This document shows positions 3,729-54,480 of a stretch of 64,000 bases of DNA, piece after piece. A program made the translations under genes and the position numbers. Position 1 is the stretch's first letter; each line of letters starts with the position of its first letter. The notes beneath the pieces were generated by a model that saw only the letters and a list, made by a program, of their open reading frames with translations, was not told where the DNA came from and searched no databases. This stretch comes from Chitinophaga pinensis (GTDB lineage: Bacteria; Bacteroidota; Bacteroidia; NS11-12g; UBA955): assembly GCA_945877575.1 (NCBI GenBank), contig CAMDUE010000002.1:197861-261860 (forward strand). Direction: 5' to 3'.

Positions 3729-4858
3729 TTGGAAAGAAATTAGTAATAATTAGTCATACTTTACACGCCATCAATGAGCGCAGTGAGGTTGTAGGTTGGG
3801 GGCCAACGGTGGCAGAAATAAATTATTTGTCTGACCATTGGAGCGATGTTGTACATGTGGCATGTTTCGGTCAAGAAAATGCCAATGCAAGTATGAAAAG
3901 TTATTCCAATAAAAATATTCGATTTAGCCCAATTCCCACTTTTGGTGGTTTAAGAATAATTGATAAGGTTTCGGTGTTTACAAATGCATTTACCGTTATC
4001 CGAGTAATACTAAAAGAATTAAAAGGAGCGAGTCACGTGCAGATTCGTGTACCAATGGGTATTGGGGTATATGTTTTACCTTTATTCCTTTTTATACCTA
4101 GGAAATTCACTTTGTGGGTCAAATATGCCAATAATTGGGGGCATGTTTCTAGTTCATTAGGGTATCGTTTTCAGCGGTGGTTTTTAGAAAAGAAGTTTTT
4201 GAATTGCGCTGTAACAATAAATGGATTTTGGCCAAATCAAAAGAAGCACTTACAGAGCTTTGAAAATCCATGCATAACAGAAGAACAGAATAAAATAGGC
4301 CAATTAATAAATAAAGAGTTTGATAAAGAATTTAAAGTGGTTTTTGCGGGTCGAATAGATTCTGAAAAGGGCTTGGACTTCTTATTAGAGATAATTCCAA
4401 AGCTCCCCAATGAAAAAATACAAGAATGGGTATTTATTGGTGATGGATCATTAAGAGAAAAACTAGAAATTGAATTTAAAAAGGTGAACATCAACACTAG
4501 ATTTTTGGGATTTGTGGAACAAGAATTAGTTCATAAAGAACTTCAAGAAGCACATTTTCTCGTATTACCTAGCAAATCGGAGGGATTTCCCAAAGTAGTT
4601 GCTGAAGCTTGGAACTACGGTTGTATACCCATTTGCAGTGCAGTTGGAAGCATTCCTCATTATCTGGAAAATGAAAAAAACGGGTTCTTAATGAGCGAAT
4701 TAAATTCTATTTCTTTGCTTCAGACCATTAATGTTGCATTTTTTTTGAATTCAAAGGAATTGAAAAAAATAGCGAAAAATGGCTCTATTGGATCAACTGA
4801 ATTTAGATTTGAAAATTATTTAAAGAATCTGGAGGAAAAGATATTTCATGGTAATTGA
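3719..4858 (+). CDS. Glycosyltransferase family 1/4
   Basis: VVFAGRIDSEKGLDFLLEII...EGFPKVVAEAWNYGCIPICSAVGSIPHYL. Confidence 0.7.
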   Translation: MPLIGKKLVIISHTLHAINERSEVVGWGPTVAEINYLSDHWSDVVHVACFGQENANASMKSYSNKNIRFSPIPTFGGLRIIDKVSVFTNAFTVIRVILKELKGASHVQIRVPMGIGVYVLPLFLFIPRKFTLWVKYANNWGHVSSSLGYRFQRWFLEKKFLNCAVTINGFWPNQKKHLQSFENPCITEEQNKIGQLINKEFDKEFKVVFAGRIDSEKGLDFLLEIIPKLPNEKIQEWVFIGDGSLREKLEIEFKKVNINTRFLGFVEQELVHKELQEAHFLVLPSKSEGFPKVVAEAWNYGCIPICSAVGSIPHYLENEKNGFLMSELNSISLLQTINVAFFLNSKELKKIAKNGSIGSTEFRFENYLKNLEEKIFHGN

Positions 4859-16259: not shown

Positions 16260-16386
16260 CCGAGTTTGGCGCCGTTTTACTTCCGAGTTTGGCACTGTTT
16301 TACTTCCGAGTTTGGCGTTTTTTTAAAATACCCCCTACCAACTACCAGGTACCATCTACCAGGTACTAGGTACCAGGTACCAGGTA
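16260..16386. repeat. 23-bp direct repeats (CCGAGTTTGGCRCYGTTTTACTT, about 2.6 copies) followed by a TACCAGGTA / CTACC hexamer array
   Basis: Directly visible in the divergent intergenic region. The array is the reverse-strand version of the GGTAGN family found elsewhere in the window. Confidence 0.8.
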
Positions 16387-16480
16387 TTATATTTTGCCTA
16401 CTCGAACAAAAACTTTGTGAAGGGAATCGGTTGGTATTGAATTTGGAACGAAATTTGTAGTGATAGTTCGACAATAATTC

Positions 16481-25081: not shown

Positions 25082-26116
25082 TTATTCCATTCTCTCCCAA
25101 GTGCTTTTTAGAACTTTTGTTTTGAGGCCGTGTTTTTCGGCGAGGTAGCGCGCGAAGACGGCAGAGTAGCCGTGGGTGACGGAAATGGTGTGGGCTTCGG
25201 TGGCGAGGCAGGCGGTTTCGAGTTCTTGGAAGTCGGCGTGGTCGCTGAGAACGAATCCGCGGTCAAAGTTTCCCCAACGGCGGGAACCGCGAAGGGCCAT
25301 CCAGCCGGAGCAGGAAATTGTTAGGTGACGAGGGTCTTGTGGCGAGGGACTGGTGTCTATATTTTGGGTGTTAGGGGTCGGGTGTCGGGATTCGGAGGGG
25401 GTCGGGTTACGGGAGTCGGTGGGGTTGCTGGAGATGAGGATGTGCTTGGAGGTGGGGCGTTGGTTTTTGGTGGTAGGGTAAATGGGGGGAAGGAAGATAT
25501 TGAAGCCGTCACGGTTGAGGGCTTGGGTTGTGTCGGCGATGGTTTTGGTGACGTAGAGGGGGAGGTCTTGGAGGTGATGGATGAGACGCTGGGCTTTTCC
25601 GAGGGAGTAGGCTGAGATGATGAGGTTTTCATCGTTGTTGTGGAAGTATTCGCGGATGTCGTTGAAGATATCGGCTTGGGGTGTCCATCGAAAAACGGGG
25701 AGTCCGAAGGTGCTTTCGGTGATAAAGTGGTGGCATTTCACGGGTTCGAATGGGGTGGAGATGCCGTCATTGTTGAGTTTATAGTCCCCCGAAACGACCC
25801 AAATTTCGCCTTGATGTTCTAGTCGGATTTGCGCGGAACCGGGTATGTGTCCGGCGGGATGAAAGGAAATGTTGACGCCGTTGATGCTGATGGTTTGGCT
25901 GAAGGGAAGGGTTTGGAGGGAGATGTGTTGACCGAGACGGAGTTTCAGGATGTGTTCGTTGCCCTGGGCGGCGAGGTAGTGTTTGTGGTTGGGTCGGGCG
26001 TGATCAGCGTGGGCGTGGGTGATGAGGGCTTTGTTGACGGGCTTGTGGGGATCTATGTAGACATCGGCGGCGGGGCAGTAGAGGCCGGATGGGGTGGAGG
26101 TTAGTAGTTGGTACAT
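25082..26116 (-). CDS. Ligase-associated DNA damage response exonuclease (MBL-fold)
   Basis: GLYCPAADVYIDPHKPVNKALITHAHADHA N-terminus and HxHxDH metallo-beta-lactamase motif. An ATP-dependent DNA ligase gene lies nearby. Contains an in-frame low-complexity insert. Confidence 0.7.
   Translation of the reverse strand: MYQLLTSTPSGLYCPAADVYIDPHKPVNKALITHAHADHARPNHKHYLAAQGNEHILKLRLGQHISLQTLPFSQTISINGVNISFHPAGHIPGSAQIRLEHQGEIWVVSGDYKLNNDGISTPFEPVKCHHFITESTFGLPVFRWTPQADIFNDIREYFHNNDENLIISAYSLGKAQRLIHHLQDLPLYVTKTIADTTQALNRDGFNIFLPPIYPTTKNQRPTSKHILISSNPTDSRNPTPSESRHPTPNTQNIDTSPSPQDPRHLTISCSGWMALRGSRRWGNFDRGFVLSDHADFQELETACLATEAHTISVTHGYSAVFARYLAEKHGLKTKVLKSTWERME
25325..25480. repeat. G-rich heptamer array (GGGTGTC/GGGATTC/GGGTTAC ...) embedded in-frame in the exonuclease CDS
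   Basis: Seen directly. Encodes TDSRNPTPSESRHPTPNTQ... on the minus strand. Confidence 0.7.
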
Positions 26117-26160
26117 GGTAGATGGTACATGGTAGATGGTAGATGGTACATGGTAGGGGG
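26101..26160. repeat. GGTACATGGTAGATGG hexamer array at the exonuclease start
   Basis: ggtacatggtagatggtacatggtagatggtagatggtacatggtagggggtagggg. Confidence 0.8.
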
Positions 26161-26171
26161 TAGGGGATATT

Positions 26172-26210
26172 AAAAAAACCCCGAGGTGTTGCCCCGGGGT
26201 TTTTTGTTTT
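26172..26210. terminator. Bidirectional intrinsic terminator hairpin
   Basis: A7-CCCCGAGG-tgttg-CCCCGGGG-T6. The 8-bp stem has one mismatch. The element lies just downstream of the S46 peptidase stop on the minus strand. Confidence 0.6.
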
Positions 26211-26222
26211 TGGTGGGTTTGG

Positions 26223-28391
26223 TTATTTCACCAAGGTCATTTCGTTGACGATGTTGGTGGCGCCGCCGAGTTTGTCGATGATGAACAACACGTAGCGTAT
26301 GTCAACGGAGATGGTGCGCTGTAGGGCGGGCATGAATCCGAAGTCAGAAGCGATGGCTTCCCAGTTTCCGTCGAAAGCAATTCCTATAAGCTCGCCGCGG
26401 CCGTTGATGACGGGTGAACCCGAGTTTCCGCCGGTGATGTCGTTGTTGCTCAAGAAGCAAGCGTGAAGATCGCCGGTAGTGGGGTCAGCGTATTGGCCGA
26501 AGTCTTTGTTTTTAATTAATTCTATCAATGCATCTGGTGCGTCGAATTCGAAGTCGCCGGGGATGTATTTTTCCATGATGCCGCGAGAAGAGGTGTAGTA
26601 GTTGTACTTTACCGCGTCTTTGGCGTTGTAACTTTCAATGGTTCCGTAGCTCAAACGCATGGTGGCGTTGGCATCAGGAGCGGTTACTTTTTCGGGATAC
26701 ATTTCCGCTTGAGCGGACAAAAACAAACGGTTAGCGCGGTCCAAACGACTGTTGATGTCAGCGGTGATAGGCGCTAAGTCTTTGCGTAGGATGCTCACAT
26801 AGCCGTTTACGATGGCGAACAACGGATCTTTTGCAAGTGCAGAAGCATTAGCAGAAGACATTAATTTTTTGAGCTTTACAGGATTTGAGAAAGCGCTCTT
26901 TGCCCAAACTTGGTCAGCCATTGCTTGGTAGTTTTTACCGTGCTTGGCAGCTAATTTCTTCAAATTTTCAGGCAGGTATTTGTTGTCTAAATCCTCCAAA
27001 AAGTGGCGGAAAATCACTGCAATTACTCGGCGTTCGATGTCGGAGTTGAATTCTTTGTAATTTTCGTCAATGCCGGCAGCAAATTCTGCGGACATGGCTT
27101 TTCCTTTGTCGTTGGTTTTGTCAAGAAGGGCTGTGTAAATGCGCATGGCTTGCATGGCATTCATCATGGGCACGCTGTTGGCGATACCATCTTGAAGGTA
27201 GACAGAGTATAGTCCGTATTTGTTAAGGTCTTCGTAGGCGCGGTCGTAAAGGGAGGTCACTTCACCGTAAACTTCTTCTTTTTTATTGTCGCGAACCCAC
27301 TGTTCGAAGGCGCGTTCTTGAGCTTTGCGGCGGGCGTAAATTTCGGGTTTAGAAAGTTCTTTCGCTTCACCGTTGAACTTGTTCCAGTAGTTTCCGATGC
27401 CGGCCAATTTCGCAGAGTACATCAAGCGTACGTCTTTGTCAGCCTTCATGTAGGTTTCGTAAACGTCCATGATGTCGCGGCGCAATTGCACACGCATTGG
27501 ACGCTCTTTTCCTGCCAAGTATTTGATTCCCTCGGAATAAGTATAGCGGGTGGTGCGGCCGGGATATCCCATGGTCATAGCAAAATCACCTTCTTTCACG
27601 CCTTTCAAGCTCACCGGAAGGTAGTGCTTGGGGGTGAAGGGCTTGTTGGACGTGCTGTAATCAGCGGGCTTGTTGTCGGCACCTGCATAAACGCGGAACA
27701 TAGAGAAGTCGCAGGTATGGCGTGGCCATCTCCAGTTGTCGGTTTCACCTCCGAATTTTCCTACGTTTTCTGGGGGAGTACCCACCAGGCGGATGTCGCG
27801 GTACACCTCGTAGTACATAGCAAGGTATTGGTTTCCGTTAGAGAACACGGCGATATCAACTACGTAGTTCTTTTTCTCGTCGCCAAGGGCTTCAACCAAC
27901 GCATTTTGGGTGGCTTTGAAGTTTTCGGCAACGGCTTTGGTGCGAGATGCTTCGTCTTGGTTGATGCTGGTATTTGCAAGAACGCGGCTGGTAACGTCTT
28001 CAATTTTGCGGAGCAGTCCGATTTGGAAAGCGACTTTACGCTCTTCAGATTGGGACTTAGCCCAGAATCCGTTAGAAAGGATATTGTCTTGAGGGGTAGC
28101 GATGCTTTGGATGGCATCATAACCACAGTGGTGGTTGGTGAGGAACATACCTTGTGAGGAGATGATTTCACCGGAGCAGAACATTCTGCCGTTTTGCATG
28201 AGTCGAACGATGGCATCTTTGGTAGAAGCATTGTTTATGGAGTAAATATCTTCTGCGGAGAGTGTCATTCCGCGGGCCTGCATTTTATCTTGAATTTTAG
28301 ACAAGAGGGTCAGTGGCCACATCCCTTCATCGGCGCGCAAGCTAAGGAAAGAGGTTGCGGCGAGTAATAAACTGAGGAATTTTTTGCTCAT
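26223..28391 (-). CDS. S46 family dipeptidyl-peptidase (DPP7/DPP11-like)
   Basis: Signal peptide then ADEGMWPL. TNHHCGYD (His). GGNSGSPV (Ser). 722 aa. Confidence 0.85.
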   Translation of the reverse strand: MSKKFLSLLLAATSFLSLRADEGMWPLTLLSKIQDKMQARGMTLSAEDIYSINNASTKDAIVRLMQNGRMFCSGEIISSQGMFLTNHHCGYDAIQSIATPQDNILSNGFWAKSQSEERKVAFQIGLLRKIEDVTSRVLANTSINQDEASRTKAVAENFKATQNALVEALGDEKKNYVVDIAVFSNGNQYLAMYYEVYRDIRLVGTPPENVGKFGGETDNWRWPRHTCDFSMFRVYAGADNKPADYSTSNKPFTPKHYLPVSLKGVKEGDFAMTMGYPGRTTRYTYSEGIKYLAGKERPMRVQLRRDIMDVYETYMKADKDVRLMYSAKLAGIGNYWNKFNGEAKELSKPEIYARRKAQERAFEQWVRDNKKEEVYGEVTSLYDRAYEDLNKYGLYSVYLQDGIANSVPMMNAMQAMRIYTALLDKTNDKGKAMSAEFAAGIDENYKEFNSDIERRVIAVIFRHFLEDLDNKYLPENLKKLAAKHGKNYQAMADQVWAKSAFSNPVKLKKLMSSANASALAKDPLFAIVNGYVSILRKDLAPITADINSRLDRANRLFLSAQAEMYPEKVTAPDANATMRLSYGTIESYNAKDAVKYNYYTSSRGIMEKYIPGDFEFDAPDALIELIKNKDFGQYADPTTGDLHACFLSNNDITGGNSGSPVINGRGELIGIAFDGNWEAIASDFGFMPALQRTISVDIRYVLFIIDKLGGATNIVNEMTLVK

Positions 28392-28413
28392 GGTGCGAAG
28401 ATAGTAAAAATTA

Positions 28414-28560
<147 letters not shown>

Positions 28561-28642
28561 CGGATAGTGTGGGGAAGTGGTTTTATGTTTGCGGTTTGAA
28601 GGCATGGGATATTTGTACGGATAAAATACGTACATTTGTTGA

Positions 28643-28933
28643 ATGGAAAATAAGATGGAACGAATTGAGTTGAGGGTGAGCAAGTCGGAAAAAATGATAT
28701 TACAGCGGGCGGCAGAAATATTGGGTTTCGGGTCATTGAGTGCCTTTTTATTATCGGAAGTTCGTCCTAAAGCAGAGGAGGTAGTGAAGAGAGAGAGTAC
28801 AATAAGATTAAATTTGGAAGACTCTTTCAAGATCATGGAGTATCTTGAAAGGGGGGAAGTGGAGAATGGTGCTTTGAAAAAGGCGAGGGAAATGTACGGT
28901 CAAGTGGTGAAAGATGAAGGAATTCCGATTTGA
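28643..28933 (+). CDS. DUF1778 family antitoxin (TacA-like, RHH)
   Basis: RIELRVSKSEKMILQRAAEILGFGSLSAFLLSE. 96 aa. Overlaps the downstream GNAT gene by 20 bp. Confidence 0.7.
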   Translation: MENKMERIELRVSKSEKMILQRAAEILGFGSLSAFLLSEVRPKAEEVVKRESTIRLNLEDSFKIMEYLERGEVENGALKKAREMYGQVVKDEGIPI

Positions 28934-29402
28934 GAAACTGGATGTAAAAAGGCACGACAGAAAATCATTTGTTTCTGGAAACGAAGAATTAGATCAGTTT
29001 TTTCAAACCCAGGCCAGACAGCAAATGGAGAAGCGTTTGAGTGTCTGCTTTGTCATGTTAAATGGCGGATCAAAAATTATTGGATTTTATACATTAAGTT
29101 CTGCAAGTGTAGAAGCAAATGAAAGTAGAATTTCGAGTTCAAAATATGTAAGCTTACCTGTGGTTTTGATTGGTAGACTGGCTGTACATTCTCAGTTTCA
29201 AAAGCAGGGTTTAAGTGGATTGATGTTGGTTAATATCATTGAAAGAGTTAGAAAATTATCGGAGAGTGAAATTGGGGTTAAGGGCATTTTCGTTGAGCCC
29301 AAATCCGAGGAAATCTCATTGTACTACCTTAAATATGGATTTTTGAAGCTGGAAAAAGGGGTGTTTTATCCTTTCGGTAAAAATTCAAGTAATTCTGGAT
29401 AA
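28914..29402 (+). CDS. GNAT family acetyltransferase toxin (TacT-like)
   Basis: 162 aa GNAT, translationally coupled to the DUF1778 gene. N-terminal KLDVKRHDRKSFVSGNEELDQFF is typical of TacT/KacT. Confidence 0.7.
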   Translation: MKEFRFEKLDVKRHDRKSFVSGNEELDQFFQTQARQQMEKRLSVCFVMLNGGSKIIGFYTLSSASVEANESRISSSKYVSLPVVLIGRLAVHSQFQKQGLSGLMLVNIIERVRKLSESEIGVKGIFVEPKSEEISLYYLKYGFLKLEKGVFYPFGKNSSNSG

Positions 29403-30905
29403 CAGTTCTTCAAGGGTGGCGATGTCTTTGACGGATTTATCGCGGCGCCAGCGCACGATGCGAGGGAAACGAACGGCGATGCCGCTTTTATGTCGGGTGC
29501 TACGATTGATTCCTTCGAAGGCGAGTTCGAAGACGAGTTCGGCGTCTACACTTTTTACAGGGCCGAAACTTTCACGGGTGTGGAGTTTGATCCATTTATT
29601 GACTTCTAGAATTTCAGCGTCAGTGAGTCCGGAATAGGCTTTAGCAAACGGTACGAGTTCCTCGCCTTTGTAAATGGCGAAGGTAAAATCGGTATATAGG
29701 TTGGCGCGACGACCGTGTCCGCGTTGGGCGTAGATGAGAACGGCATCAACAGTGTCTGCGTCGACTTTCCATTTCCACCAATCGCCGCGTTTACGTCCAA
29801 TTCCATAGGCTGAATCTTTGCGTTTGATCATGAGTCCTTCGCTTCTTATTTGGGAGGATTCATTTCTGATTTTCTGGAGTTCTTCAAAGTCTTTGGGATG
29901 AAAAACGGGACTGGGCTGTATGTGAGTGTTTGGTGATGGGAATAGATTGTCTAGTTGTTGTCGACGATTGAAAAGGGGTTCCTGGCGAAGGTCTTGACCG
30001 TTAATTTCGAGGAGGTCATAGGCTAAAAACACGACAGGGTAGTCTGTGAGAGTTTTTTTTCCGGGGGACTTTCTTCCGAGTCTTTTTTGCAGGTCTTGAA
30101 ACGGTCTTGGGAGTTGAAGTTCAAAGTCCCAACAAAGGATTTCCCCATCGAGGGCGCCCGAAAAAGCATCCCAAGAAAGCATGGAGGAAGCAAGTTCAGG
30201 AAATTGGTGGGTGATGATGTCTTCGCCGCGTGACCAGAGGTTTATGGAGTTGTTGCGTTTGATGATTTGCGCGCGGATGCCATCCCATTTAGGCTCTATT
30301 TGATAATTTGTAAGTGGATGAATATCTGTTGATTGAGGATCTTCATTGAAGGGAGACGCAAGGAAAAAAGGGTATGGTTTGGTAGAATTTAGATGGGGTT
30401 TTGGTGAGATGATGAGGTCTTGGTAGTTGGAGTTTTGCACGGTCCAATTTCCCATCAATCGGAGGTTGAGCTCGTCTTTTTCGATGCCTGTGTGAGCGTG
30501 AAGGGCTTGAACGAGAAGTCCTTGAGAGACGCCAAGTCGGAAGCCGCCGGTGAGGAGTTTGATTGATGGTAGTTGGTAGGGGGTAGAGGGTAGGGGGTAG
30601 AGGGACTGTGAGTTTTGGAGGATGAGGTGGATGGTTTCGGCGAGGTCACCTACTACGGAGTAGGATTCTTCGAAGAGCCAATCGGGGATTTGGGCGGTTT
30701 GGATGGCCCATTGTTTGAGTTCGGATAGTTTGATTTGTCGTTTGGGTCGGCGGCCGGTGAAGATTGCGATGACCATGAGTTTGTCAGGGTCTGGGGCTTG
30801 GTTGAAATAATGGGTTAGGGCTTGCACCTTACGGGAGTTTTTGGTGGTGGAGTCGAGTTCGTAGAAAAGTTTGGAAAAGAGATCAGGAACTTCGAAGATG
30901 TGCAT
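29385..30905 (-). CDS. ATP-dependent DNA ligase (ligase-associated DNA damage response type)
   Basis: N-terminal FSKLFYELDSTTKNSRKVQALTHYF. Motif I EPKWDGIRAQI (the adenylated Lys). 506 aa. Contains an in-frame GGTAGN array. Confidence 0.8.
   Translation of the reverse strand: MHIFEVPDLFSKLFYELDSTTKNSRKVQALTHYFNQAPDPDKLMVIAIFTGRRPKRQIKLSELKQWAIQTAQIPDWLFEESYSVVGDLAETIHLILQNSQSLYPLPSTPYQLPSIKLLTGGFRLGVSQGLLVQALHAHTGIEKDELNLRLMGNWTVQNSNYQDLIISPKPHLNSTKPYPFFLASPFNEDPQSTDIHPLTNYQIEPKWDGIRAQIIKRNNSINLWSRGEDIITHQFPELASSMLSWDAFSGALDGEILCWDFELQLPRPFQDLQKRLGRKSPGKKTLTDYPVVFLAYDLLEINGQDLRQEPLFNRRQQLDNLFPSPNTHIQPSPVFHPKDFEELQKIRNESSQIRSEGLMIKRKDSAYGIGRKRGDWWKWKVDADTVDAVLIYAQRGHGRRANLYTDFTFAIYKGEELVPFAKAYSGLTDAEILEVNKWIKLHTRESFGPVKSVDAELVFELAFEGINRSTRHKSGIAVRFPRIVRWRRDKSVKDIATLEELLSRIT
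30568..30605. repeat. (GGTAGN)6 array in-frame inside the ligase CDS
   Basis: ggtagttggtagggggtagagggtagggggtagaggg. Encodes PLPSTPYQLPS on the minus strand. Confidence 0.8.
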
Positions 30906-30906
30906 G

Positions 30907-30921
30907 TTGCGAATTTCGCAA
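30907..30921. promoter_or_regulatory. Perfect palindrome TTGCGAATTTCGCAA (TTGCG-W5-CGCAA), candidate operator
   Basis: Lies 1 bp upstream of the ligase ATG and 65 bp upstream of the wecB ATG. The same half-sites occur at 38981 and 39022. Confidence 0.4.
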
Positions 30922-30986
30922 ATTTTGGCGGGGAGTTTTGTGAAAAATGCAAGAACTTAGAAAATTGAATGACTTAACTTTGCACC

Positions 30987-32081
30987 ATGAAAATCACGTT
31001 GGTTGCGGGGGCGAGACCCAACTTTATGAAGATAGCTCCAATCCTTAGGGCAATTGAGGGGGCGGCGATTCGTGGGGAAGATATTCAATATCGATTGGTG
31101 CATACTGGACAGCACTACGACAAGGCAATGTCGGGTAGCTTCTTTGAGCAATTGGGAATTCCTGAGCCAAACGTGAATTTGGAATGTGGAGGTGGAAGTC
31201 ATGCAGAGCAGACTGCGGCTATTATGGTTGCGTTTGAGAAAGAGTTGATGGCACACCCTTGCGATTGGGTGGTGGTGGTTGGAGATGTTACTTCTACAAT
31301 GGCCTGTTCAATTTCAGCTAAGAAGTTACATATTAAGGTTGCGCACGTAGAGGGAGGAATCAGAAGCGGTGATATTACCATGCCCGAAGAGATCAATCGT
31401 TTGGTGACAGACAGCATCACGGATGTGTTTTTTACCACATCGGAGGTGGCTAACAGTAATTTGAGAAAAGCTGGGGTATCGGAGGAGAGCATTGTTTTTG
31501 TGGGTAATACCATGATTGACACGTTGTTGAGGCATGAAAATGATTTTGTAGCACCTGCATTTTGGGAGGCTGAGTCTTTGAAGAAGGGTGACTATTTGGT
31601 GATGACCTTGCATAGGCCATCGAATGTGGATGATGCTGATCAGTTGAGGTCTATTTTCGAGGTGATTGATGATGAATTGAAAGATCATAAAGTGGTTTTT
31701 CCAGTACATCCGAGAACCCGAAAAAACATGGAAAGTTTTGGAATTAAGCCTATGAATGTGGTGATGGCTGAGCCTTTGGGGTATTTTGAATTCAATTATT
31801 TGGTGAAAAATGCCAAAGGGGTGATTACCGATTCAGGGGGAATTACAGAAGAGACCACTGTGATGGGTGTTCCGTGTATCACTATGAGGAATAGCACCGA
31901 AAGACCGGAGACGGTTGATATTGGTACCAATGAGTTGATAGGAACCGACCCTGAAAATTTGAGAAAAGCATTGAAACAACTGCTTTCGGGCCAATGGAAA
32001 AAAGGAAATATTCCTCCAATGTGGGACGGTAAAACTGCTGAGCGAATCGTGGAGTGGTTTTCTCTAAATTTGCAAAAATGA
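30987..32081 (+). CDS. wecB: UDP-N-acetylglucosamine 2-epimerase (non-hydrolysing)
   Basis: MKITLVAGARPNFMKIAPI...HTGQHYD. 364 aa. Confidence 0.9.
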   Translation: MKITLVAGARPNFMKIAPILRAIEGAAIRGEDIQYRLVHTGQHYDKAMSGSFFEQLGIPEPNVNLECGGGSHAEQTAAIMVAFEKELMAHPCDWVVVVGDVTSTMACSISAKKLHIKVAHVEGGIRSGDITMPEEINRLVTDSITDVFFTTSEVANSNLRKAGVSEESIVFVGNTMIDTLLRHENDFVAPAFWEAESLKKGDYLVMTLHRPSNVDDADQLRSIFEVIDDELKDHKVVFPVHPRTRKNMESFGIKPMNVVMAEPLGYFEFNYLVKNAKGVITDSGGITEETTVMGVPCITMRNSTERPETVDIGTNELIGTDPENLRKALKQLLSGQWKKGNIPPMWDGKTAERIVEWFSLNLQK

Positions 32082-34399
32082 AAATTTCCGTTAATTGGTT
32101 AAAATCTTTGGTTCCGGTGGAGGAAAGCGCGCAGCAAATTGCTGATCGATTGTCGGTTTCGGGACTAGAAGTGGAGCATATAGAAGAGTGGGAGAGTTTG
32201 CCCGGAGGATTGAAGGGATTTATTGTTGGTCAGGTACTTACCTGCGAAAAACACCCTGATGCCGATCGGTTGAGCGTGACTACGGTTGATGTTGGAACGG
32301 GTGAACCCTTAAATATTGTTTGCGGTGCACCGAATGTGGCGGCGGGTCAGAAAGTGGTGGTAGCTACGGTGGGCACGGAAGTTAGAATCCCCGGAAAAGA
32401 ACCTTTTTCCATAGGAAAAAGTAAGATCCGCGGAGCAGTGAGTGAGGGCATGATTTGCGCTGAAGATGAGATGGGACTGAGTGCGGGGCACGATGGAATC
32501 ATGGTTCTTCCTGATTCTGTGGAAGTAGGAACTTTGGCAGCAGATTATTTTGGAATTGAGCGTGATACGGTTCTTGAAATTGGATTGACAGCGAACCGAG
32601 GAGATGCCGCTTCTCATTTGGGAGTTGCTCGCGATGTCGCTGCCTTATATGGGGCAACAGTATTGGAGCAAAAGTCACTGGATTTTGAGGGATTGGGCTC
32701 TGCTTCGAAGAGCATTGTTATAGAAAATAGCGAGCTTTGTCGCAGATATGTAGGAGTGAGTATTGAAGGGGTTGAAATTAAAGAGTCGCCCGAATGGTTG
32801 AAAAACCGTTTGAAAGCCATTGATATTGAGCCCAAGAACAATGTGGTGGATGCCACTAATTATGTGTTGCATCATTTTGGGCAGCCGGTTCATGCTTTTG
32901 ATGCTGATTGTTTGGGAAAAGAAGTTTATGTTAAGTTGGCTTCCGGCCAAAAGGCGGTTCTTTTGGATGGTAAGGAGATTGAATTGAAAACTTCAGACCT
33001 GGTGATTGCAGATGATCAAAATATTCTTGCATTGGCCGGGGTGATGGGCGGAAAATCATCGGCGGTGAGCGGTGAAACCAAGAATTTATTTTTGGAAATC
33101 GCGCATTTTCATCCCACTTATGTGAGAAAATCGGCCAAGGCGCATGTGATTAATACGGATGCTTCTTTCCGGTTTGAAAGAGGAATTGACATTGAGAACC
33201 TTCCCAATGTGGCTGGGTTCTTGTCAGGGTTGATTTTGGATATTTCCGGAGGACGTTTGGTTGGAATGACGGATGAATATCCTTCGGAAAGAGAAAAGAA
33301 AACCATCGATTTGAGTTTGGGTGCATTGAATCAATTTGCGGGATATACCTACGAAGTGGCAGATGTGGAGCGGATCTTGAGCAGTTTGGGATTTGAAGTT
33401 CAAGGTGCGAGCGAAGGACATTGGATGGTGGACGTTCCAGGTTGGCGCAACGATGTTGAGCAGGTGGTTGACTTGTACGAAGAGGTCATGCGGATATACG
33501 GTTACGACCGAATTCCGATGAGCGGAAAAATGCAGGTGTCGTTGGGTGATTTCAGCGGCATGGAGCGCAAGAAAAAGGAGAATATTACTCGCAACTATTT
33601 GGTTGATAGAGGTTTATTTGAAGCACAAACGAACAGTTTGGTATCGCCTGAATGGTATAATAGTGAGAGTTTGGTTGGATTAAGCAATCCATTGAGCGCG
33701 GACATGTCTGTGATGCGGGAGAGTTTGATTCCGGGTCTTTTGCAGTCGGTGGCGTACAATCAAAACAGGCAAGCCCGCAGGGTTCAGTTGTTTGAATTCG
33801 GACGTGTGTACGGGAAGAGCGATTCTGGAGAGTTTAAGGAAACGCCGGTGTTGGCCATTGTTTTATGGGGCTCGAAAGATGTGGAGTCTTGGGAAGGCCG
33901 CGAGGAAAAGGTTGATTTTTTCAGCTTGAAGCGTTTGGTTTCTGGACTTTTAGCGCGTTTGGATAGTGGTTTGTCGGTGGCAGATTGCGAAATCAAGCGT
34001 GTTTCTGGGGCGTGGATGAAGAAAGCTGATGTTTCGGGTGAAGTATGGTCAGTAGAAATACCATTGAAGAAATTGTACAAGCCTGGTCGGAAGCAAGTTC
34101 GTTACGAAGAGGCATCGAAGTTCTTCCAAGTGAGGAGGGATTTGAGTTTGGTGGTAGATAAAGCGGTTGGATTTGCTCAATTGGAGACGTTGGTAAAGTC
34201 TTCTAAAATGAAGAATTTGGTTGAGTTTAAGGTTTTTGATGTATTTGAAGGCAAACCTTTGGATGAGGGCAAAAAAGCCATTTCATTGAGTTTTGCGTTT
34301 AATAAGAAAGACGAACCCATGAAAGAGGGCGAAGCCGATGCAAGTATGGATCGACTGATGAAGTCTTTTGAAGAAATGGGTGCGTTGATTCGCAGATAA
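32078..34399 (+). CDS. pheT: Phenylalanine--tRNA ligase beta subunit
   Basis: MKISVNWLKSLV N-terminus. tRNA-binding, B3/4 and FDX-ACB domains. Start taken at the internal Met, which overlaps the wecB stop (ATGA). Confidence 0.9.
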   Translation: MKISVNWLKSLVPVEESAQQIADRLSVSGLEVEHIEEWESLPGGLKGFIVGQVLTCEKHPDADRLSVTTVDVGTGEPLNIVCGAPNVAAGQKVVVATVGTEVRIPGKEPFSIGKSKIRGAVSEGMICAEDEMGLSAGHDGIMVLPDSVEVGTLAADYFGIERDTVLEIGLTANRGDAASHLGVARDVAALYGATVLEQKSLDFEGLGSASKSIVIENSELCRRYVGVSIEGVEIKESPEWLKNRLKAIDIEPKNNVVDATNYVLHHFGQPVHAFDADCLGKEVYVKLASGQKAVLLDGKEIELKTSDLVIADDQNILALAGVMGGKSSAVSGETKNLFLEIAHFHPTYVRKSAKAHVINTDASFRFERGIDIENLPNVAGFLSGLILDISGGRLVGMTDEYPSEREKKTIDLSLGALNQFAGYTYEVADVERILSSLGFEVQGASEGHWMVDVPGWRNDVEQVVDLYEEVMRIYGYDRIPMSGKMQVSLGDFSGMERKKKENITRNYLVDRGLFEAQTNSLVSPEWYNSESLVGLSNPLSADMSVMRESLIPGLLQSVAYNQNRQARRVQLFEFGRVYGKSDSGEFKETPVLAIVLWGSKDVESWEGREEKVDFFSLKRLVSGLLARLDSGLSVADCEIKRVSGAWMKKADVSGEVWSVEIPLKKLYKPGRKQVRYEEASKFFQVRRDLSLVVDKAVGFAQLETLVKSSKMKNLVEFKVFDVFEGKPLDEGKKAISLSFAFNKKDEPMKEGEADASMDRLMKSFEEMGALIRR

Positions 34400-38960: not shown

Positions 38961-38978
38961 CCCCTAAAAAAAATTTCG

Positions 38979-39037
38979 ATTTGCGAAAAATGCAAATTCT
39001 TTTTTCCGGGGGACGTTGAATTTGCGAAAAACGCAAG
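38979..39037. promoter_or_regulatory. Two near-palindromic TTGCG-AAAAA-YGCAA sites 41 bp apart (candidate operators)
   Basis: ATTTGCGAAAAATGCAAAT at 38979-38997. TTTGCGAAAAACGCAAG at 39021-39037. Both sit in the divergent intergenic region. Confidence 0.45.
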
Positions 39038-39089
39038 AGATGTAAAATCAATGCGTTGCAACTTTGCATCGAACCTTTATTCAAATCTT

Positions 39090-49341: not shown

Positions 49342-52300
49342 TTAAAATGCTGCTTCAACGCCAATTAGGAACCGGAAATCTACGAAGTTTTCTTGTGGAT
49401 TCACGGTATTTAGGAAAAATGGAAAATCAATTCTATATCGCATGGTTCTTGGAGAGTAAGAGTAGTTGCGATTGATGATTTTATTGTAATTATTGATGTT
49501 GATCCACGTTCCTATTCCGGCATCTGCGAGCAGGTTGCTGTTGTACCAATTATTTGATTTTTGGATTGCGATCAAACCTGCATCAGCGAATAAATAGGGT
49601 GAAAAAGAAATGAATTTATTTTTCAAAAAGGGCGAAAGTAACTTTCCGAAGTGCCATTCTGTGTTGATAGATATACCAGAAGTACCTCTAAAAAATGCCA
49701 TGATGCTGTCGTTTGATTTGATTCCAATGGCTCTTCCATGAAATCCTCTGAGGTTCAGTCCGCCACCTAAATGGGTGTAATTCGGTTGGATGTTTCCGAG
49801 ATTTCGAACCATCATATTTTGGAATTGAGTTTCAGGGTTGGCGCTTGATGTGTAAAGGGCTGATTCAGGTGATGGATTCGCACCTTGAGCTAATTGAGCG
49901 AATACTCTAGACTTGAAAGTGGTTGATTTAATAGGTTGTTGGTGTTTCCATTCTAGGTTAAACCAACCAAATTGTGTTTGGCTCCAAGGCGATATTAATC
50001 GGGTATCAACGGCAATGGTTCCTGACCTTGACCAACCTGAGTATTGGATGTTCCAAAACAGGTGGAAGTTGGTATTGGTTCTGTCAGACCAAGTACTTGC
50101 AGTGGGTAGATAACCATTGAAAAGGGAATTCTTGTTTATGATGGTTTCGGTGTTTGAACTAAGTGCCCTTAGGTCTTTTCCATAAAGTCCGAAGGTATGT
50201 TTCCCCAATTTCCATTTCCAACCTAGTATTGAGCTCAGACGTTGGTTTGAGGAGATGATTTCTGCAAAATATGTCCCTCCACCGCGTATGTCATGTTGCC
50301 AATTTACTAAACCATTGATGGTCTGGTGAGCGAATTTTATATAATTTAATGGGTAAATCTGATTATTAAGGGCATAATATATTCTGGCATCAAAAACATG
50401 TTTTCGGCTGGCATATTGTCCGGTAAATTTTGCACCAATCATGGTTCCAGAATACTGATTGTATGCAATTGCGGGTCTAATTAGTACTTCGTATGGTTCT
50501 AAAATATTGCTATTTGGACCTTGTCCTTGATCGAGTTTAAAGGAAATTTTCTTTTTCCAACGGTTATTCCTTCGGTCAATGTCGGCCAAAAGGTAGGTGG
50601 CGTCCAAGAAAATTTCTGTGAGTTCATGTTTGGGTTCAATGCTCACATTGATGGTAAAATCGCGGTTCAAACGTCCCCAAGAATTCCAAACCTTGGTTGA
50701 AAGCCTGTTAGGAATGATGTATTGATTTGTTGGGATGGTTAATTGGGTAAATATTAATTTTCCACTTTCGGTTCGTGTCAAAAGGTCTAAGTTCACGGGC
50801 ATGGTGAGATTTCCGTAGCGATGAACGGTGATTTTATATTGACCATTCTCGAGCTTTTTTACTTTTTTAATGCCGTAGTCAATGACTTCTTTCGATTCAA
50901 ACCATTGATCAAAGAACTTATTCAGATCAATTTGTGCTGATTGAATGACTGAATTTCGAAAATCTTCTATGTACGGATGCTTGAATTTCCATTGTTCCAC
51001 ATAGTTTTTCATGGCTATCGAGAAAATGGAATCCCCCAAGAAATAGCGCAAATTGTAGAGCATGGTAGCCGTTTTGTAGTATACATTTCCGTATCCGCCG
51101 CCATGTCCAACGGCCTCATGAAATTCATTACTATGGGTATTGAGACGTTCGTCTTCGCCATCAATGGCATCATCCAAATAGGGGCCAATGGCCCTGGAAT
51201 ATTCGGGAAATGGCTCTACTTTCAGCTCTTTCAGAGCTTCGGCCGTTAAAAATTGAGTGAATCCTTCGTCGAGAGCTGCCCGATAGGTTTCGTTGCTGCC
51301 CACCATTCCCATGAACCAATTGTGGGCCACTTCGTGTGCGATGAGTGCTCTGTGCGAGGGATAGGAACCGCCGCAGAGCGTGAGCATGGGGTATTCCATA
51401 CCATCAGCAGCGTCTGCCACCACAATTTTAGGGTATGCATACATCCCATAATTTCGGCTGTAAAAGGCAATGACTTCACTTAAATATTGCGCGGTTTTTG
51501 TCCAATTTTTGGCATTATGGGCTTGTGCGATTGCCACGCATTGAATTCCGTTCCATGTGACTTCGCTTATTCTGTAGGTTGGATCAGCTGTCCAAGCAAA
51601 ATCGTGAACGTTTTGAGCAAGGAAATGCCAAGTTTTGGTAGTTGGTAGGGGGTAGTTGGTAGTTGGTAGTTGGTAGGGGGTAGTTGGTAGGGGGGTGTTG
51701 GGTTTCGGGTTTTGGGTTTCGGGGGACGGGGAGCGGGAGTTGGGTTGGTTGATGTCAATGGCTTTTTTGAGATCATCGGGAAGTGCTTCTTCGCGGTTTA
51801 AGAGTAATCCGGTGGCTTCAACGATGTACTTTTCTGGGAGATTTAGTTTCACATCAAAGGTGCCAAAGTCGCCGTAAAATTCTTTTTCAAGGTGTTGGCT
51901 GGTTTCCCAAGTGAACTTTTGGTCATAGACGCAAATTCTTGGGTACCAATGAACACCGTTGAAATGTTTAACTCCATGATGATCAAACACTTTCATTCTC
52001 CGGCGAATGGATCCTCGATCAAAATAAGTCTTGAACCAAATTTCAAACACGCAAGAATCTCCTGATTGCAGAGGCTCAGGAAGATCAATTTTCATGATGG
52101 TATAATCAATCTGAGGATCTAAAATGACTTTTTTATAGGGTTTGGTTGATTTATTTCCTTCAATTTGAATCCATGTGATTTGTGTCCCCAAACCTTGTTT
52201 TTCGTAGTTGCCGTAGGTGGGTTTAATTTTATTTAGTTCGTAGAGTTTATCTGTTAAAGAACCTGGCTGAGTGGAGTTTTGATATAAATGAAAAAAAGCT

Positions 52301-52548
52301 TCATTCAGGGTATTGGGTGAGTTGTTGGTGTAAGTCAATCGAAGTTTACCCGTAATAACTTCCGAACTATCATCAAGACTTGCATCTATTTGATAGTGAA
52401 CTTTTTGTTGCCAGTAAGTGGTAGGTGGTAGATGGTAGGGGGTAGGGGGTACTTGGTAAATGGTAGGGGGTAGTTGGCCGTTGGTAGAGAGGAGTTTTGT
52501 GGGGAAGAGTGACCAGAAAAAGATGAGCAAAATCAAGCGCATTCTCAA
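49342..52548 (-). CDS. M1 family zinc metallopeptidase (secreted), with PT/Y-rich low-complexity linkers
   Basis: Signal peptide. HEVAHNWF...E (HEXXH-X18-E). 1068 aa. Two in-frame hexamer-repeat inserts. Confidence 0.8.
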   Translation of the reverse strand: MRMRLILLIFFWSLFPTKLLSTNGQLPPTIYQVPPTPYHLPPTTYWQQKVHYQIDASLDDSSEVITGKLRLTYTNNSPNTLNEAFFHLYQNSTQPGSLTDKLYELNKIKPTYGNYEKQGLGTQITWIQIEGNKSTKPYKKVILDPQIDYTIMKIDLPEPLQSGDSCVFEIWFKTYFDRGSIRRRMKVFDHHGVKHFNGVHWYPRICVYDQKFTWETSQHLEKEFYGDFGTFDVKLNLPEKYIVEATGLLLNREEALPDDLKKAIDINQPNSRSPSPETQNPKPNTPLPTTPYQLPTTNYPLPTTKTWHFLAQNVHDFAWTADPTYRISEVTWNGIQCVAIAQAHNAKNWTKTAQYLSEVIAFYSRNYGMYAYPKIVVADAADGMEYPMLTLCGGSYPSHRALIAHEVAHNWFMGMVGSNETYRAALDEGFTQFLTAEALKELKVEPFPEYSRAIGPYLDDAIDGEDERLNTHSNEFHEAVGHGGGYGNVYYKTATMLYNLRYFLGDSIFSIAMKNYVEQWKFKHPYIEDFRNSVIQSAQIDLNKFFDQWFESKEVIDYGIKKVKKLENGQYKITVHRYGNLTMPVNLDLLTRTESGKLIFTQLTIPTNQYIIPNRLSTKVWNSWGRLNRDFTINVSIEPKHELTEIFLDATYLLADIDRRNNRWKKKISFKLDQGQGPNSNILEPYEVLIRPAIAYNQYSGTMIGAKFTGQYASRKHVFDARIYYALNNQIYPLNYIKFAHQTINGLVNWQHDIRGGGTYFAEIISSNQRLSSILGWKWKLGKHTFGLYGKDLRALSSNTETIINKNSLFNGYLPTASTWSDRTNTNFHLFWNIQYSGWSRSGTIAVDTRLISPWSQTQFGWFNLEWKHQQPIKSTTFKSRVFAQLAQGANPSPESALYTSSANPETQFQNMMVRNLGNIQPNYTHLGGGLNLRGFHGRAIGIKSNDSIMAFFRGTSGISINTEWHFGKLLSPFLKNKFISFSPYLFADAGLIAIQKSNNWYNSNLLADAGIGTWININNYNKIINRNYSYSPRTMRYRIDFPFFLNTVNPQENFVDFRFLIGVEAAF
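51637..51750. repeat. (GGTAGN)n + (GGGTTTC)n composite array in-frame in the M1 peptidase CDS
   Basis: ggtagttggtagggggtagttgg...gggtttcgggttttgggtttcgggggacgggg. Encodes NPKPNTPLPTTPYQLPTTNYPLPTT. Confidence 0.8.
52419..52492. repeat. (GGTAGN)n array in-frame right after the M1 peptidase signal peptide
   Basis: gtggtaggtggtagatggtagggggtagggggtacttggtaaatggtagggggtagttgg. Encodes QLPPTIYQVPPTPYHLPPTTY. Confidence 0.8.
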
Positions 52549-54304: not shown

Positions 54305-54480
54305 TCCAAGGTAGTTGGTAGCAGGTAGTTGGTAGCAGGTAGTTGGTAGTTGGTAGCAGGTAGTTGGTAGTTGGTAGCTGGGCTCTGGCCCAAAACCCGG
54401 TACCCAAAACCCGAAACCCGATACCCGATACCCGATACCCGATACCTGAAACCTGATACCCGATACCCGGTACCCGATAC
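54305..54480. repeat. About 175-bp simple-repeat block: (GGTAGYWG)n then (CCCGATA/CCCGAAA)n
   Basis: Seen directly between convergent coaD and NUDIX genes. The minus strand is a (GGGTATC)n G4 motif. Confidence 0.85.

Follow-up and report, generated by a model that had tools for sequence, protein, structure and literature searches.

Heptanucleotide repeats in bacteria

Phase variation driven by simple-sequence repeats (SSRs) is exemplified in Haemophilus influenzae by the CAAT repeats of lic1, with their alternative ATGs, and by the 7-bp repeats in the hmw promoters. The name STRR, applied to head-to-tail heptanucleotide repeats of cyanobacteria, reportedly goes back to Mazel in 1990. According to Mrazek (2007), as cited in PMC4679880, some bacteria have heptanucleotides as their commonest class of long SSRs, with slippage of the polymerase as the proposed cause. 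Heptamer repeats located beside start or stop codons were described in Beggiatoaceae, cyanobacteria, Bacteroidetes and Xanthomonas (PMC4679880; PMC4692102), and the intergenic regions of Gramella and Aequorivita contain other heptamer repeats, which are missing from close relatives (PMC4679880). Here, we describe heptamer arrays of an uncultured Bacteroidota genome within a stretch of 64,000 nucleotides (the whole of which is called the window), with the main focus on the array placed at the 5' end of an exonuclease gene. The best named PheT relative, labelled 'Bacteroidetes bacterium', shows 59% identity. Loci of related strains are referred to by L numbers.

Structure of the focal array and the exonuclease start

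The focal region contains the following features:

25082-26116, minus strand: LADR (ligase-associated DNA damage response) exonuclease gene, 344 aa (TIGR04122 and homologue alignment)
26101-26166, minus strand: heptanucleotide tandem array, the focal array (TRF, sequence, 35 versus 0 pattern matches, period-7 specificity)
26114-26116, minus strand: exonuclease ATG, the first start after a stop in frame, with no alternative ahead of the invariant residues; TIGR04122 begins at residue 4
26101-26151, minus strand: out-of-frame upstream ORF made by the array (from the sequence; ATGs at 26151 and 26130, in one frame)
26173-26205, minus strand: intrinsic terminator of the S46 gene, a hairpin that has A-run and U-run arms (fold; kept in L003 and L206)
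26223-28391, minus strand: S46 peptidase gene, 722 aa (PF10459, 701 bits)
28420-28558, no strand assigned: three abutting heptamer arrays upstream of S46 (TRF, sequence)

On the gene strand (26163-26101), the focal array is composed of nine contiguous units without spacers (CTACCCC, CTACCAT, GTACCAT, CTACCAT, CTACCAT, GTACCAT, CTACCAT, GTACCAA and CTACTAA), preceded by CCC at 26166-26164. The consensus is CTACCNN on the minus strand, which corresponds to GGTAGNN on the plus strand. TRF detected a period of 7 with 7.6 copies (26104-26156) and a higher-order row of period 21 (26109-26163). A reading of the same DNA made from the sequence alone (the sequence-only reading) had reported a hexamer array at 26101-26160; a tandem array is indeed present at this place, with a period of 7 and not 6, and hexamer periodicity is ruled out by the lag scan, which found no period-6 array in the window. 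The focal array fills the entire gap between the S46 terminator and the body of the exonuclease gene. CRISPR, REP or MITE readings appear unlikely, as spacers are lacking and no inverted-repeat structure was seen in the heptamer arrays; no stem-loop was found in single-stranded DNA of the focal array. The exonuclease leader is unstructured (-0.9 kcal/mol, z = +1.85) and a search of the whole window against Rfam at the gathering threshold gave no matches, which rules out a structured leader or a known RNA.

The exonuclease matches TIGR04122 with 358.8 bits (cut-off 325) over residues 4-341, position 1 of the model corresponding to residue 4, and THAHADH (the metallo-beta-lactamase HxHxDH motif) is invariant in the homologue alignment. 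Its ATG lies at a unit junction (CTACCAT/GTACCAA), with A and T closing one unit and G opening the next, in the context ACC-ATG with A at position -3. Codons 1-5 (MYQLL) are placed inside the last two focal units; the sequence-only reading had assigned the ATG and MYQLLTSTP to the repeat, and this holds for the ATG and MYQLL, while the TSTP codons are located outside the array. The N-terminal peptide predicted from the array-borne start is MYQLLTSTPSGLY. An internal Met start, which had been considered as the alternative, is not available, since downstream of 26116 no ATG, GTG or TTG falls in frame before the invariant residues T8, G11 and C14 are reached, and Met is not encountered again until near residue 272. 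The family-wide N-terminus in the homologue alignment is M-L-I-T-x-T-P, so that the MLI start alleles look ancestral. As judged from the reading frame and this alignment, the exonuclease start codon is now supplied by the repeat, the array having grown over the gene start.

Three ATGs in two frames are present in the focal array: those at 26151 and 26130 are out of frame and 26116 is in frame. The upstream ORF terminates at TAA (26103-26101) and overlaps the real exonuclease start; AUG is normally depleted around the start codons of Bacteroidetes (PMC6847099). The in-frame ATG is located 3' of seven of the nine units, at the last clean unit and with two degenerate units downstream. The exonuclease frame is therefore insensitive to units being added or removed upstream.

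The S46 terminator (AAAAAACCCCGGGG-CAACA-CCUCGGGGUUUUUU; 26205-26173, minus strand), which lies 17 nt beyond the S46 stop codon, folds with -21.4 kcal/mol (z = -4.27), and the claim of an intrinsic terminator immediately upstream of the array was thus confirmed. It constitutes a conserved landmark, its T-run being followed by three different sequences in the window, L003 and L206. In the interval between the terminator and the ATG neither sigma-70-like sites nor Bacteroidetes TAnnTTTG boxes were found. Since no promoter was found, expression of the exonuclease in this strain is assumed from its intact, conserved frame. The arrays upstream of S46 consist of AGTCCGA (4.6 copies), GGTAGNN (8.3 copies) and GGACTAT (5.9 copies) units, spanning 28420-28451, 28462-28519 and 28518-28558, respectively. 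The S46 5' region had likewise been described as built from the same repeat family. Three arrays do lie upstream of the gene; they start 28 nt before the ATG (28391), upstream of the conserved TATCTTCG-CACC-ATG, and the coding sequence is not repeat-derived.

Heptamer arrays across the window

The pattern GGTAGNNGGTAGNNGGTAG (three GGTAGNN units, at most 1 mismatch) occurs 35 times in the window versus 0.00 expected from 100 dinucleotide-preserving shuffles. A lag scan of the window identified nine arrays at period 7, none at periods 4-6 and 8-12, and none in the shuffles. GGTAGNN arrays are found at 8 places in the 64 kb. Higher-order periodicities of 14, 21 and 28 nt were detected (TRF), and further heptamer arrays are present in the strain loci L003, L005, L127 and L206. 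The arrays are placed (i) before start codons, (ii) across a stop codon, (iii) just after a stop codon and (iv) in frame within the ligase, M1-type peptidase and exonuclease genes. Besides those listed above, the following were distinguished:

16328-16390, plus strand: CTACCNN array, 91 nt upstream of a plus-strand gene at 16481 (TRF, pattern search)
25366-25424, minus strand: NACCCGA-like in-frame segment within the exonuclease gene (TRF row 25374-25424)
30568-30604, minus strand: in-frame GGTAGNN array within the LADR ATP-dependent DNA ligase gene (29385-30905; translation)
51635-51723, minus strand: in-frame arrays (GGTAGNN, then GGGTTTN) in the M1-type peptidase gene (49342-52542; TRF, translation PLPTTPYQLPTTNYPLPTT)
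52414-52477, minus strand: in-frame GGTAGNN array in the same peptidase gene (TRF, translation QLPPTIYQVPPTPYHLPPTTY)
54310-54388, plus strand: GGTAGNN array, 6 nt past the coaD stop codon (54304; TRF, sequence)
54395-54495, minus strand: TCGGGTN array (ACCCGAN on the plus strand) overlapping the 3' end of the NUDIX gene (54481-55116; TRF, sequence)

The array in the ligase gene encodes SLYPLPSTPYQLPSI, and the TIGR04120 match is split into two stretches around it. In the exonuclease, the NACCCGA-like segment codes for a portion of a low-complexity loop of strain-dependent length, and in the M1-type peptidase the array at 52414-52477 directly follows an apparent signal peptide (by eye). The last codons of the NUDIX gene and its TAG stop codon come from the array. 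As members of the same unit families also span one stop codon, follow another and sit in frame within three genes, the arrays are not specifically 5' regulatory modules. Sigma-70-like and TAnnTTTG sites were not found before the exonuclease, and the earlier suggestion that the arrays provide promoter function is not supported in its original form.

The orientation of the arrays follows a strand rule: upstream of genes and within them the sense strand is C-rich, and past stop codons it is G-rich. The G-rich strand is thus antisense in the exonuclease and S46 arrays and sense in the 3' arrays of coaD and NUDIX; the array at 16328-16390 is the sole copy in the CTACCNN orientation on the plus strand. 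Four canonical G-quadruplex (G4) motifs were found in the window (25366-25424, 30579-30604, 51690-51744 and 54389-54440) versus 0.26 expected, all of them within heptamer arrays. The focal array contains two G-runs of at least 3 (GGGGG at 26156 and GGGG at 26163), i.e., two of the four required G-tracts, and a canonical G-quadruplex is therefore ruled out for it. In a genome-collection scan for four GGTAGNN units, the matches listed included Acidobacteriota, cyanobacteria, Bacteroidales, Saprospiraceae and others, a scatter of phyla from which no host range is definable.

Variation of the arrays between strains

The coding DNA of the exonuclease is 96.3-100% identical across strains, and five alleles of its 5' array were distinguished: CTACCNN with 9 (window) or 14 units (L003), and NACCCGA with 7 (L127-L131), 11 (L206, L209) or 12 units (L005). 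Tract length therefore differs between relatives, as the sequence-only reading had proposed to check. Genes upstream of the exonuclease also differ among strains. The 14-unit allele of L003 carries an array-borne ATG as well, exactly 3 units (7 codons) further upstream than that of the window, and the N-termini read from the two are MFPLPSTNYQLL (L003) and MYQLL (window). The strains L127-L129, L130 and L131, about 2% diverged in the exonuclease gene, have an identical 5' array. L001 and L002 also carry the focal array in identical form, being exact substrings of the window, and were rejected as independent confirmation. In a blastn comparison of the window with L206 only 26090-26172 remained unaligned; the apparent absence of the exonuclease from L206 is a gene-calling artefact, since tblastn finds it there with 93.7% identity.

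The arrays upstream of S46 occur in at least four alleles and differ in L206, L207, L209, L127 and L129. They are identical in L206, L207 and L209, which come from three samples, and differ in unit composition, at contig ends, between L127 and L129 (99.6% identical over 6.7 kb). Within genes, length differences between strains keep the reading frame: the ligase of L206-L209 has 14 additional residues (6 units) relative to the window, and the exonuclease segment from DGFNIF to CSGWM, including the loop, measures 213 nt in the window, 198 nt in L003, 153 nt in L005 and 156 nt in L127. Four contigs (L126, L127, L129 and L207) break within arrays. Among 80 exonuclease-related metagenome loci, heptamer arrays were almost confined to close relatives; sister-lineage loci of the same gene order contained none in 22 kb and 17.6 kb.

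Origin of the arrays and alternative explanations

We consider the focal tract, which has overrun a gene start and has no dedicated switch function, to belong to a heptanucleotide simple-sequence repeat family (STRR/LSSR-like) that is specific to the lineage and spread through the genome (probability of about 0.7). Judging from the allele patterns, replication slippage and unequal or ectopic recombination would make the arrays longer or shorter and exchange their unit types, which is probably also how they originated. What points to slippage and recombination are the whole-unit differences between alleles and the higher-order periodicities. Selection would retain harmless copies, i.e., those that are intergenic or, within genes, have the CTACC orientation, which is free of stops, and a unit number divisible by three. 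Where the S46 terminator and the exonuclease meet, at a junction that varies among strains, the focal array would have overrun the ancestral start ATG CTC ATC (M-L-I), and a C-to-G unit variant (CTACCAT/GTACC) would have created the present ATG, so that the first five codons became repeat sequence. As a leader, the array is G-poor and unstructured and carries A at -3, features that fit initiation without a Shine-Dalgarno sequence in Bacteroidota, and the exonuclease is probably transcribed by read-through or from an unrecognized promoter. The array may tune exonuclease expression quantitatively.

A dedicated cis-regulatory element is a possible but unlikely explanation. The arrays would then be bound by a Csp- or S1-like protein that recognizes single-stranded nucleic acids, at one heptamer per protein, or would form a G-quadruplex or i-motif that controls the neighboring genes at the level of transcription or translation. 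The GGTAG/CTACC core is kept at many loci, the arrays obey the same strand and position rule as the G4-forming heptamers (PMC4692102), and the excess of canonical G4 motifs falls entirely in heptamer arrays. In addition, heptamer repeats affect the expression of recF and recO in Nostoc (bioRxiv 10.1101/2022.06.06.494920), and a translational role was proposed for the TAACTGA repeats (PMC4679880). However, the focal array, with its two G-runs, lacks a canonical G4 motif, in strains of one species its place is taken by units of another family (NACCCGA), the sister lineage is array-free, and arrays are also found in coding regions and at 3' ends.

The conservation of the 5-nt GGTAG core across at least seven loci makes pure local slippage insufficient, and hints at ectopic conversion, a sequence-specific process or selection. 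It is conceivable, if doubtful, that the arrays are made or homogenized by a process peculiar to this lineage, which would depend on the core sequence and operate at DNA breaks or rearrangement junctions. The arrays would then be hot spots of recombination, through which cassettes are shuffled and genes acquire start codons, stop codons and 7-residue peptide linkers. Such a process would explain the conserved core, the exclusive 7-nt period and the presence of arrays at every strain-variable cassette boundary examined.

It is very improbable that the repeat-borne ATG is not the real start, either because the gene is silent or decaying after a rearrangement that removed its promoter and start, or because a non-canonical initiation codon is used. 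The locus is a structural-variant junction, the interval from the strong terminator to the ATG has no promoter motif, and the two out-of-frame AUGs just upstream are unusual for initiation regions of Bacteroidetes (PMC6847099); against this, all 344 codons are in an unbroken frame whose score exceeds the equivalog cut-off, the window and L003, as two independent alleles, each have exactly one in-frame array ATG, whole codons apart, the ACC-AUG context and the unstructured leader favor initiation, and no alternative start codon precedes the invariant residues.

The least probable of the explanations is a contingency (phase-variation) locus, as raised in the sequence-only reading, in which heptamer slippage toggles the exonuclease on and off or between N-terminal isoforms via the frames of the array ATGs: a unit length indivisible by 3, the spread of three ATGs over two frames, strain-variable copy number and contig breaks within arrays, which could reflect heterogeneity, are in line with it, but the frame-setting ATG lies downstream of seven units, so that their gain or loss is frame-neutral, no -35/-10 or TAnnTTTG element flanks the tract, so there is no promoter-spacing switch, strains diverged by about 2% share the same exonuclease array and three samples the same S46-upstream arrays, the array-associated genes (ligase, coaD, NUDIX, M1 peptidase) have DNA-repair and housekeeping roles and are not a surface-antigen set, the family is not 5'-specific, and phase variation was likewise rejected for the GGGNATC repeats by Rehm (2015; PMC4692102). 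The focal array is probably not a dedicated on/off switch.

Significance

The repeats described here provide a concrete case of a non-triplet simple-sequence repeat remodeling genes in a natural population. In strains that are otherwise 96-99% identical, the arrays replace a start codon, supply a stop codon and insert 7-residue-periodic linkers. They also matter for annotation: ORFs on the stop-free strand become longer or are joined, gene callers are misled, as happened with L206, and metagenome assemblies are interrupted. The contrast with the array-free sister lineage offers a clean system for asking why 7-nt repeats proliferate, with polymerase or mismatch-repair properties or a dedicated process as candidate causes, and for testing whether arrays tune Shine-Dalgarno-independent or leaderless expression in Bacteroidota.

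Comparison with known repeat systems

The focal array shares with SSR phase-variation loci a non-triplet repeat at a translation start, ATGs in more than one frame and a strain-variable repeat number. It differs from them in that the frame-determining ATG lies past nearly all units; moreover, surface and virulence genes are not involved, the array at the focal locus is stable across strains diverged by 2%, and the family is genome-wide, including 3' ends and internal coding sites.

The quadruplex-forming heptamers GGGNATC and GGGGA(C/T)T of Xanthomonas and Nostoc (Rehm, 2015; PMC4692102) are also genome-wide and were judged not to be phase-variation loci. In both systems the G-rich strand is non-coding up to 50 bp upstream of ORFs and coding at or after stop codons, a strand rule that by analogy could reflect function here as well. 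In contrast, the focal array has GG every 7 nt and two G-runs of at least 3, where at least four such tracts are needed for a canonical G4; there is no preference for four units, and many copies lie within coding regions.

The TAACTGA repeats (MacGregor, 2015; PMC4679880) likewise form arrays a few nt upstream of starts without a Shine-Dalgarno sequence, some overlap stop codons, and their reverse orientation is translatable in ORFs. Their pre-start copies are forward-oriented with stops in all frames, whereas the focal array is stop-free and contains the start codon. No forward TAACTGA lies directly upstream of the starts studied here, where the units are CTACCNN or NACCCGA, and the start-adjacent position is common to both.

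The closest similarity is to the LSSR (Mrazek, 2007) and STRR repeats, which, as summarized in PMC4679880, have head-to-tail 7-nt units with several unit families per genome, many dispersed and mostly intergenic copies, a sporadic, lineage-specific distribution, a strain-variable copy number and slippage as the proposed origin. The arrays analyzed here are 7-nt tandems beyond chance, with many dispersed copies and strain-variable copy number and unit order. They differ in that the GGTAGNN, TCGGGTN, GGACTAT and AGTCCGA units and an uncultured Bacteroidota host (38.7% GC) are absent from the descriptions cited, and in that one array supplies a start codon and others form frame-preserving insertions in conserved enzymes. 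The heptamer arrays are thus a known, fast-changing kind of bacterial simple-sequence DNA.

The heptamer array at the start of the exonuclease gene

The tandem array that the sequence-only reading had flagged at positions 26101-26160 is present, and its unit, described there as a hexamer, is a heptamer whose length had been misread. TRF reported a period of 7 (7.6 copies, 26104-26156), a higher-order row of period 21 (26109-26163) and two more copies of GGTAGGG, which extend the array to 26166. Both flanking genes lie on the minus strand, where positions 26166-26101 read CCC CTACCCC CTACCAT GTACCAT CTACCAT CTACCAT GTACCAT CTACCAT GTACCAA CTACTAA. The pattern GGTAGNNGGTAGNNGGTAG (at most 1 mismatch) has 35 matches in the window vs. 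0.00 in 100 dinucleotide-preserving shuffles, and a lag-identity scan of the window found nine period-7 arrays of at least 4 units and none with a period of 4, 5, 6, 8, 9, 10, 11 or 12; the repeat is thus genuine and not a product of chance. The array loci have a conserved 5-nt core in common.

Features flanking the array
25082-26116, minus strand: ORF of the ligase-associated DNA damage response (LADR) exonuclease (TIGR04122, 358.8 bits vs. a cut-off of 325; model position 1 is residue 4)
26205-26173, between the two ORFs: hairpin AAAAAACCCCGGGG-CAACA-CCUCGGGGUUUUUU (-21.4 kcal/mol, z = -4.27)
26223-28391, minus strand: ORF of an S46 peptidase (PF10459, 701 bits)

The hairpin, correctly anticipated just upstream of the array, is the terminator of the S46 gene. 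It is followed by AATAT, the array and the exonuclease gene, with no gap between the last two. The exonuclease ATG (26116-26114) is composed of the final 2 bases of one unit and the first base, G, of the next, which is a C-to-G variant (CTACCAT/GTACCAA), and the repeat encodes codons 1-5 (MYQLL); the proposal that it supplies the ATG and the residues MYQLLTSTP thus holds as far as MYQLL and fails for the remainder. No alternative in-frame ATG, GTG or TTG lies ahead of the invariant residues T8, G11 and C14, so this ATG is the sole canonical start, which is array-borne, and an internal Met start fails as an explanation. The array ATGs at 26151 and 26130 share one frame, other than that of the exonuclease, and open a 16-codon upstream ORF (stop TAA, 26103-26101) overlapping the exonuclease start.

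A genome-wide family of arrays

The heptamer arrays are a genome-wide family and not a 5'-specific module. Those of the window occupy four classes of position: before starts, across a stop, after a stop and in-frame inside genes.

Heptamer arrays of the window
16328-16390: upstream of the gene at 16481
25366-25424: in-frame within the exonuclease gene itself
26101-26166: upstream of the exonuclease start
28420-28558: AGTCCGA x4.6, GGTAGNN x8.3 and GGACTAT x5.9, upstream of the S46 start
30568-30604: in-frame, encoding ..SLYPLPSTPYQLPSI.., between two TIGR04120 match stretches of the LADR ATP-dependent DNA ligase gene (29385-30905, minus strand)
49342-52542, minus strand: M1-type peptidase gene (1066 aa) with two in-frame arrays
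54310-54388: GGTAGNN, starting 6 nt past the stop of coaD, which is convergent with the NUDIX gene
54395-54495: TCGGGTN, giving the NUDIX gene (54481-55116, minus strand) its last codons and TAG stop

Since GGTAG contains TAG, a sense array of at least 3 units places a stop in each frame, and CTACC arrays leave all frames open. This is sufficient by itself to explain why CTACC is the sense strand of copies in genes or over starts, and why the G-rich strand is sense in the 3'-end copies.

In the ligase, the array forms an insertion in the N-terminal domain (residues ~99-113) encoding PLPSTNY-type 7-residue repeats. One array of the M1-type peptidase directly follows an apparent signal peptide (judged by eye); the other, mid-protein (..PLPTTPYQLPTTNYPLPTT..), includes a GGGTTTN array resembling telomere repeats. 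Upstream of the S46 gene, the AGTCCGA (28420-28451) and GGACTAT (28518-28558) arrays have complementary cores (AGTCC/GGACT) and flank the GGTAGNN array; base pairing between the two could yield a long, imperfect hairpin or cruciform whose loop would hold the GGTAG array. The array at 16328-16390 is adjoined, in a divergent intergenic region, by a 23-nt direct repeat (CCGAGTTTGGCGCTGTTTTACTT, x2.9, 16260-16325).

The host is an uncultured member of the Bacteroidota (window GC content 38.7%); its closest named relative by PheT, 'Bacteroidetes bacterium', is 59% identical. In 403 kb of metagenome sequence from 80 exonuclease-related loci, the arrays are nearly limited to close relatives. None was found in the sister-lineage loci (22.3 and 17.6 kb searched), which have conserved gene order (S46, ligase, PheT) and encode PheT and exonuclease proteins ~62% and ~56% identical, respectively. 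There the ligase gene directly adjoins S46; in the window (25082-34399), S46 and a TacA-like/GNAT toxin-antitoxin pair sit between the LADR exonuclease and ligase genes. One array-free sister locus (L214, 8150-8359) carries a 98-nt tandem repeat (x2.1) downstream of the ligase gene.

Structural variation among related assemblies

The exact exonuclease protein of the window occurs in two other assemblies; both loci repeat a part of the window sequence without any difference and so add no information. In the remaining assemblies the gene is 96.3-98.8% identical to that of the window and to one another (600 nt of conserved coding DNA), which is about species level; protein identity is lower (88-89%) because of repeat-derived segments. 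Despite this coding identity, the 5' ends differ sharply.

Alleles of the exonuclease 5' end (L numbers, homologous loci of other assemblies)
Window: CTACCNN x9; upstream, S46 terminator; N-terminus MYQLL..
L003: same array lineage, x14, after GGGTTAC and GGGCTAC arrays; upstream, three divergent glycosyltransferase/epimerase genes; N-terminus MFPLPSTNYQLL..
L126: CTACC-type array, within which the contig breaks
L127-L131: NACCCGA x7 adjoining ATG CTC ATC; upstream, nucleotidyltransferase gene; N-terminus MLIQ..
L206, L209: NACCCGA x11; upstream, 526-aa gene; N-terminus MLIQ..
L005: NACCCGA x12; upstream, 518-aa gene; N-terminus MLIQ..

The suspected length variation of the tract is borne out: CTACCNN occurs as 9 or 14 units and NACCCGA as 7, 11 or 12. 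The start in L003 is displaced upstream from that of the window by precisely 3 units (21 nt, 7 codons), therefore both alleles retain one in-frame array ATG. Homologue alignment gives M-L-I-T-x-T-P as the N-terminus of the wider family, by which the MLI alleles look ancestral; the CTACC array seems to have overrun the original start. In a blastn comparison with L206, all of the window aligned save 26090-26172, i.e., the array, and the sequences after the terminator T-run are different in the window, L003 and L206; thus, the array marks a structural-variant junction. The cassettes beside the exonuclease vary by strain (the 526-aa gene, MNT/HepT pairs, or three glycosyltransferase/epimerase genes). 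The public gene call of L206 (1286-2329) omits the exonuclease (tblastn match, 93.7% identity) in favor of three small opposite-strand ORFs.

Other arrays also vary. Those upstream of S46 differ between the window and L206/L207/L209, and between L127 and L129 (otherwise 99.6% identical over 6.7 kb; contig ends are compared here, which calls for caution), with TATCTTCG-CACC-ATG kept at the S46 start in every allele. L206-L209 have a ligase insertion that exceeds the window's by 14 residues (6 units), and the variable-loop segment of the exonuclease (DGFNIF to CSGWM) measures 213, 198, 153 or 156 nt, the frame being kept throughout. The x7 array is identical in L127-L129, L130 and L131, although the gene is ~2% diverged, and the S46-upstream arrays are identical in three samples. 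Array change is therefore much faster than point substitution, without visible consensus-level instability. Several contigs start or end in heptamer arrays (L126, L127, L129 and L207 begin in one), so these repeats break assemblies.

Expression of the exonuclease gene

Neither a sigma-70-like site nor the Bacteroidetes -7 box (TAnnTTTG) occurs between the terminator and the exonuclease ATG. In the window, TAnnTTTG-N3-5-ATG, with the box exactly 11-13 nt before the ATG, marks ~10 of 51 ORFs vs. ~0.1 expected by chance (starts at 28643, 30987, 32078, 37270, 43394, 48688(-), 52542(-), 56503, 62232 and 63939(-)), a spacing implying that many host mRNAs are leaderless or nearly so; the S46 gene has a near-consensus box in its conserved start region. 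The 98 nt from the terminator through codon 14 show essentially no structure (-0.9 kcal/mol, z = +1.85; the fold is equalled or bettered by 194 of 200 shuffles), and neither this leader nor the whole window has an Rfam match. Initiation in Bacteroidetes is Shine-Dalgarno-independent and favored by low secondary structure and an A at -3, with AUG underrepresented around starts (PMC6847099): the ACC-AUG of the array and its open leader are favorable, its two nearby out-of-frame AUGs unfavorable. A canonical G4 motif, present in four other window arrays, is absent from this one. Taken together, these results leave the suggested promoter/RBS role of the arrays unsupported; a modest quantitative effect on expression is possible.

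The palindrome TTGCGAAATTCGCAA (30906-30935, minus strand) adjoins the ligase ATG upstream, and similar motifs (TTTCGCAAAT or TTGCGAAAAACGCAA) occur in the divergent region 38960/39051 (~38961-39050) and upstream of the L003 exonuclease (~3785-3805); it may be an operator common to LADR genes.

Comparison with known heptamer repeats

The arrays fit a known class of heptanucleotide SSR arrays. As cited by MacGregor (2015), Mrazek et al. (2007) found such repeats to be the commonest long SSR class in several bacteria and proposed that a DNA polymerase contact of ~7 nt favors slippage (PMC4679880). TAACTGA repeats of Beggiatoaceae, cyanobacteria and five Bacteroidetes directly precede start codons without a Shine-Dalgarno sequence; some extend across stop codons, and within ORFs the copies in reverse orientation are translated. 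Further heptamer repeats, absent from close relatives, occur in intergenic regions of Gramella and Aequorivita (MacGregor, 2015; PMC4679880). GGGNATC-type heptamers, for which phase variation was argued against (Rehm, 2015; PMC4692102), follow the same strand/position rule as the window arrays, and heptamer repeats of Nostoc are reported to influence recF and recO expression (bioRxiv 10.1101/2022.06.06.494920). For the arrays described here, we infer the expansion mechanism and any regulatory effect. The focal array supplies the start codon of a gene at a strain-variable junction, and this documented start-codon capture, together with the unit families and the host, is what is new relative to the known heptamer repeats.
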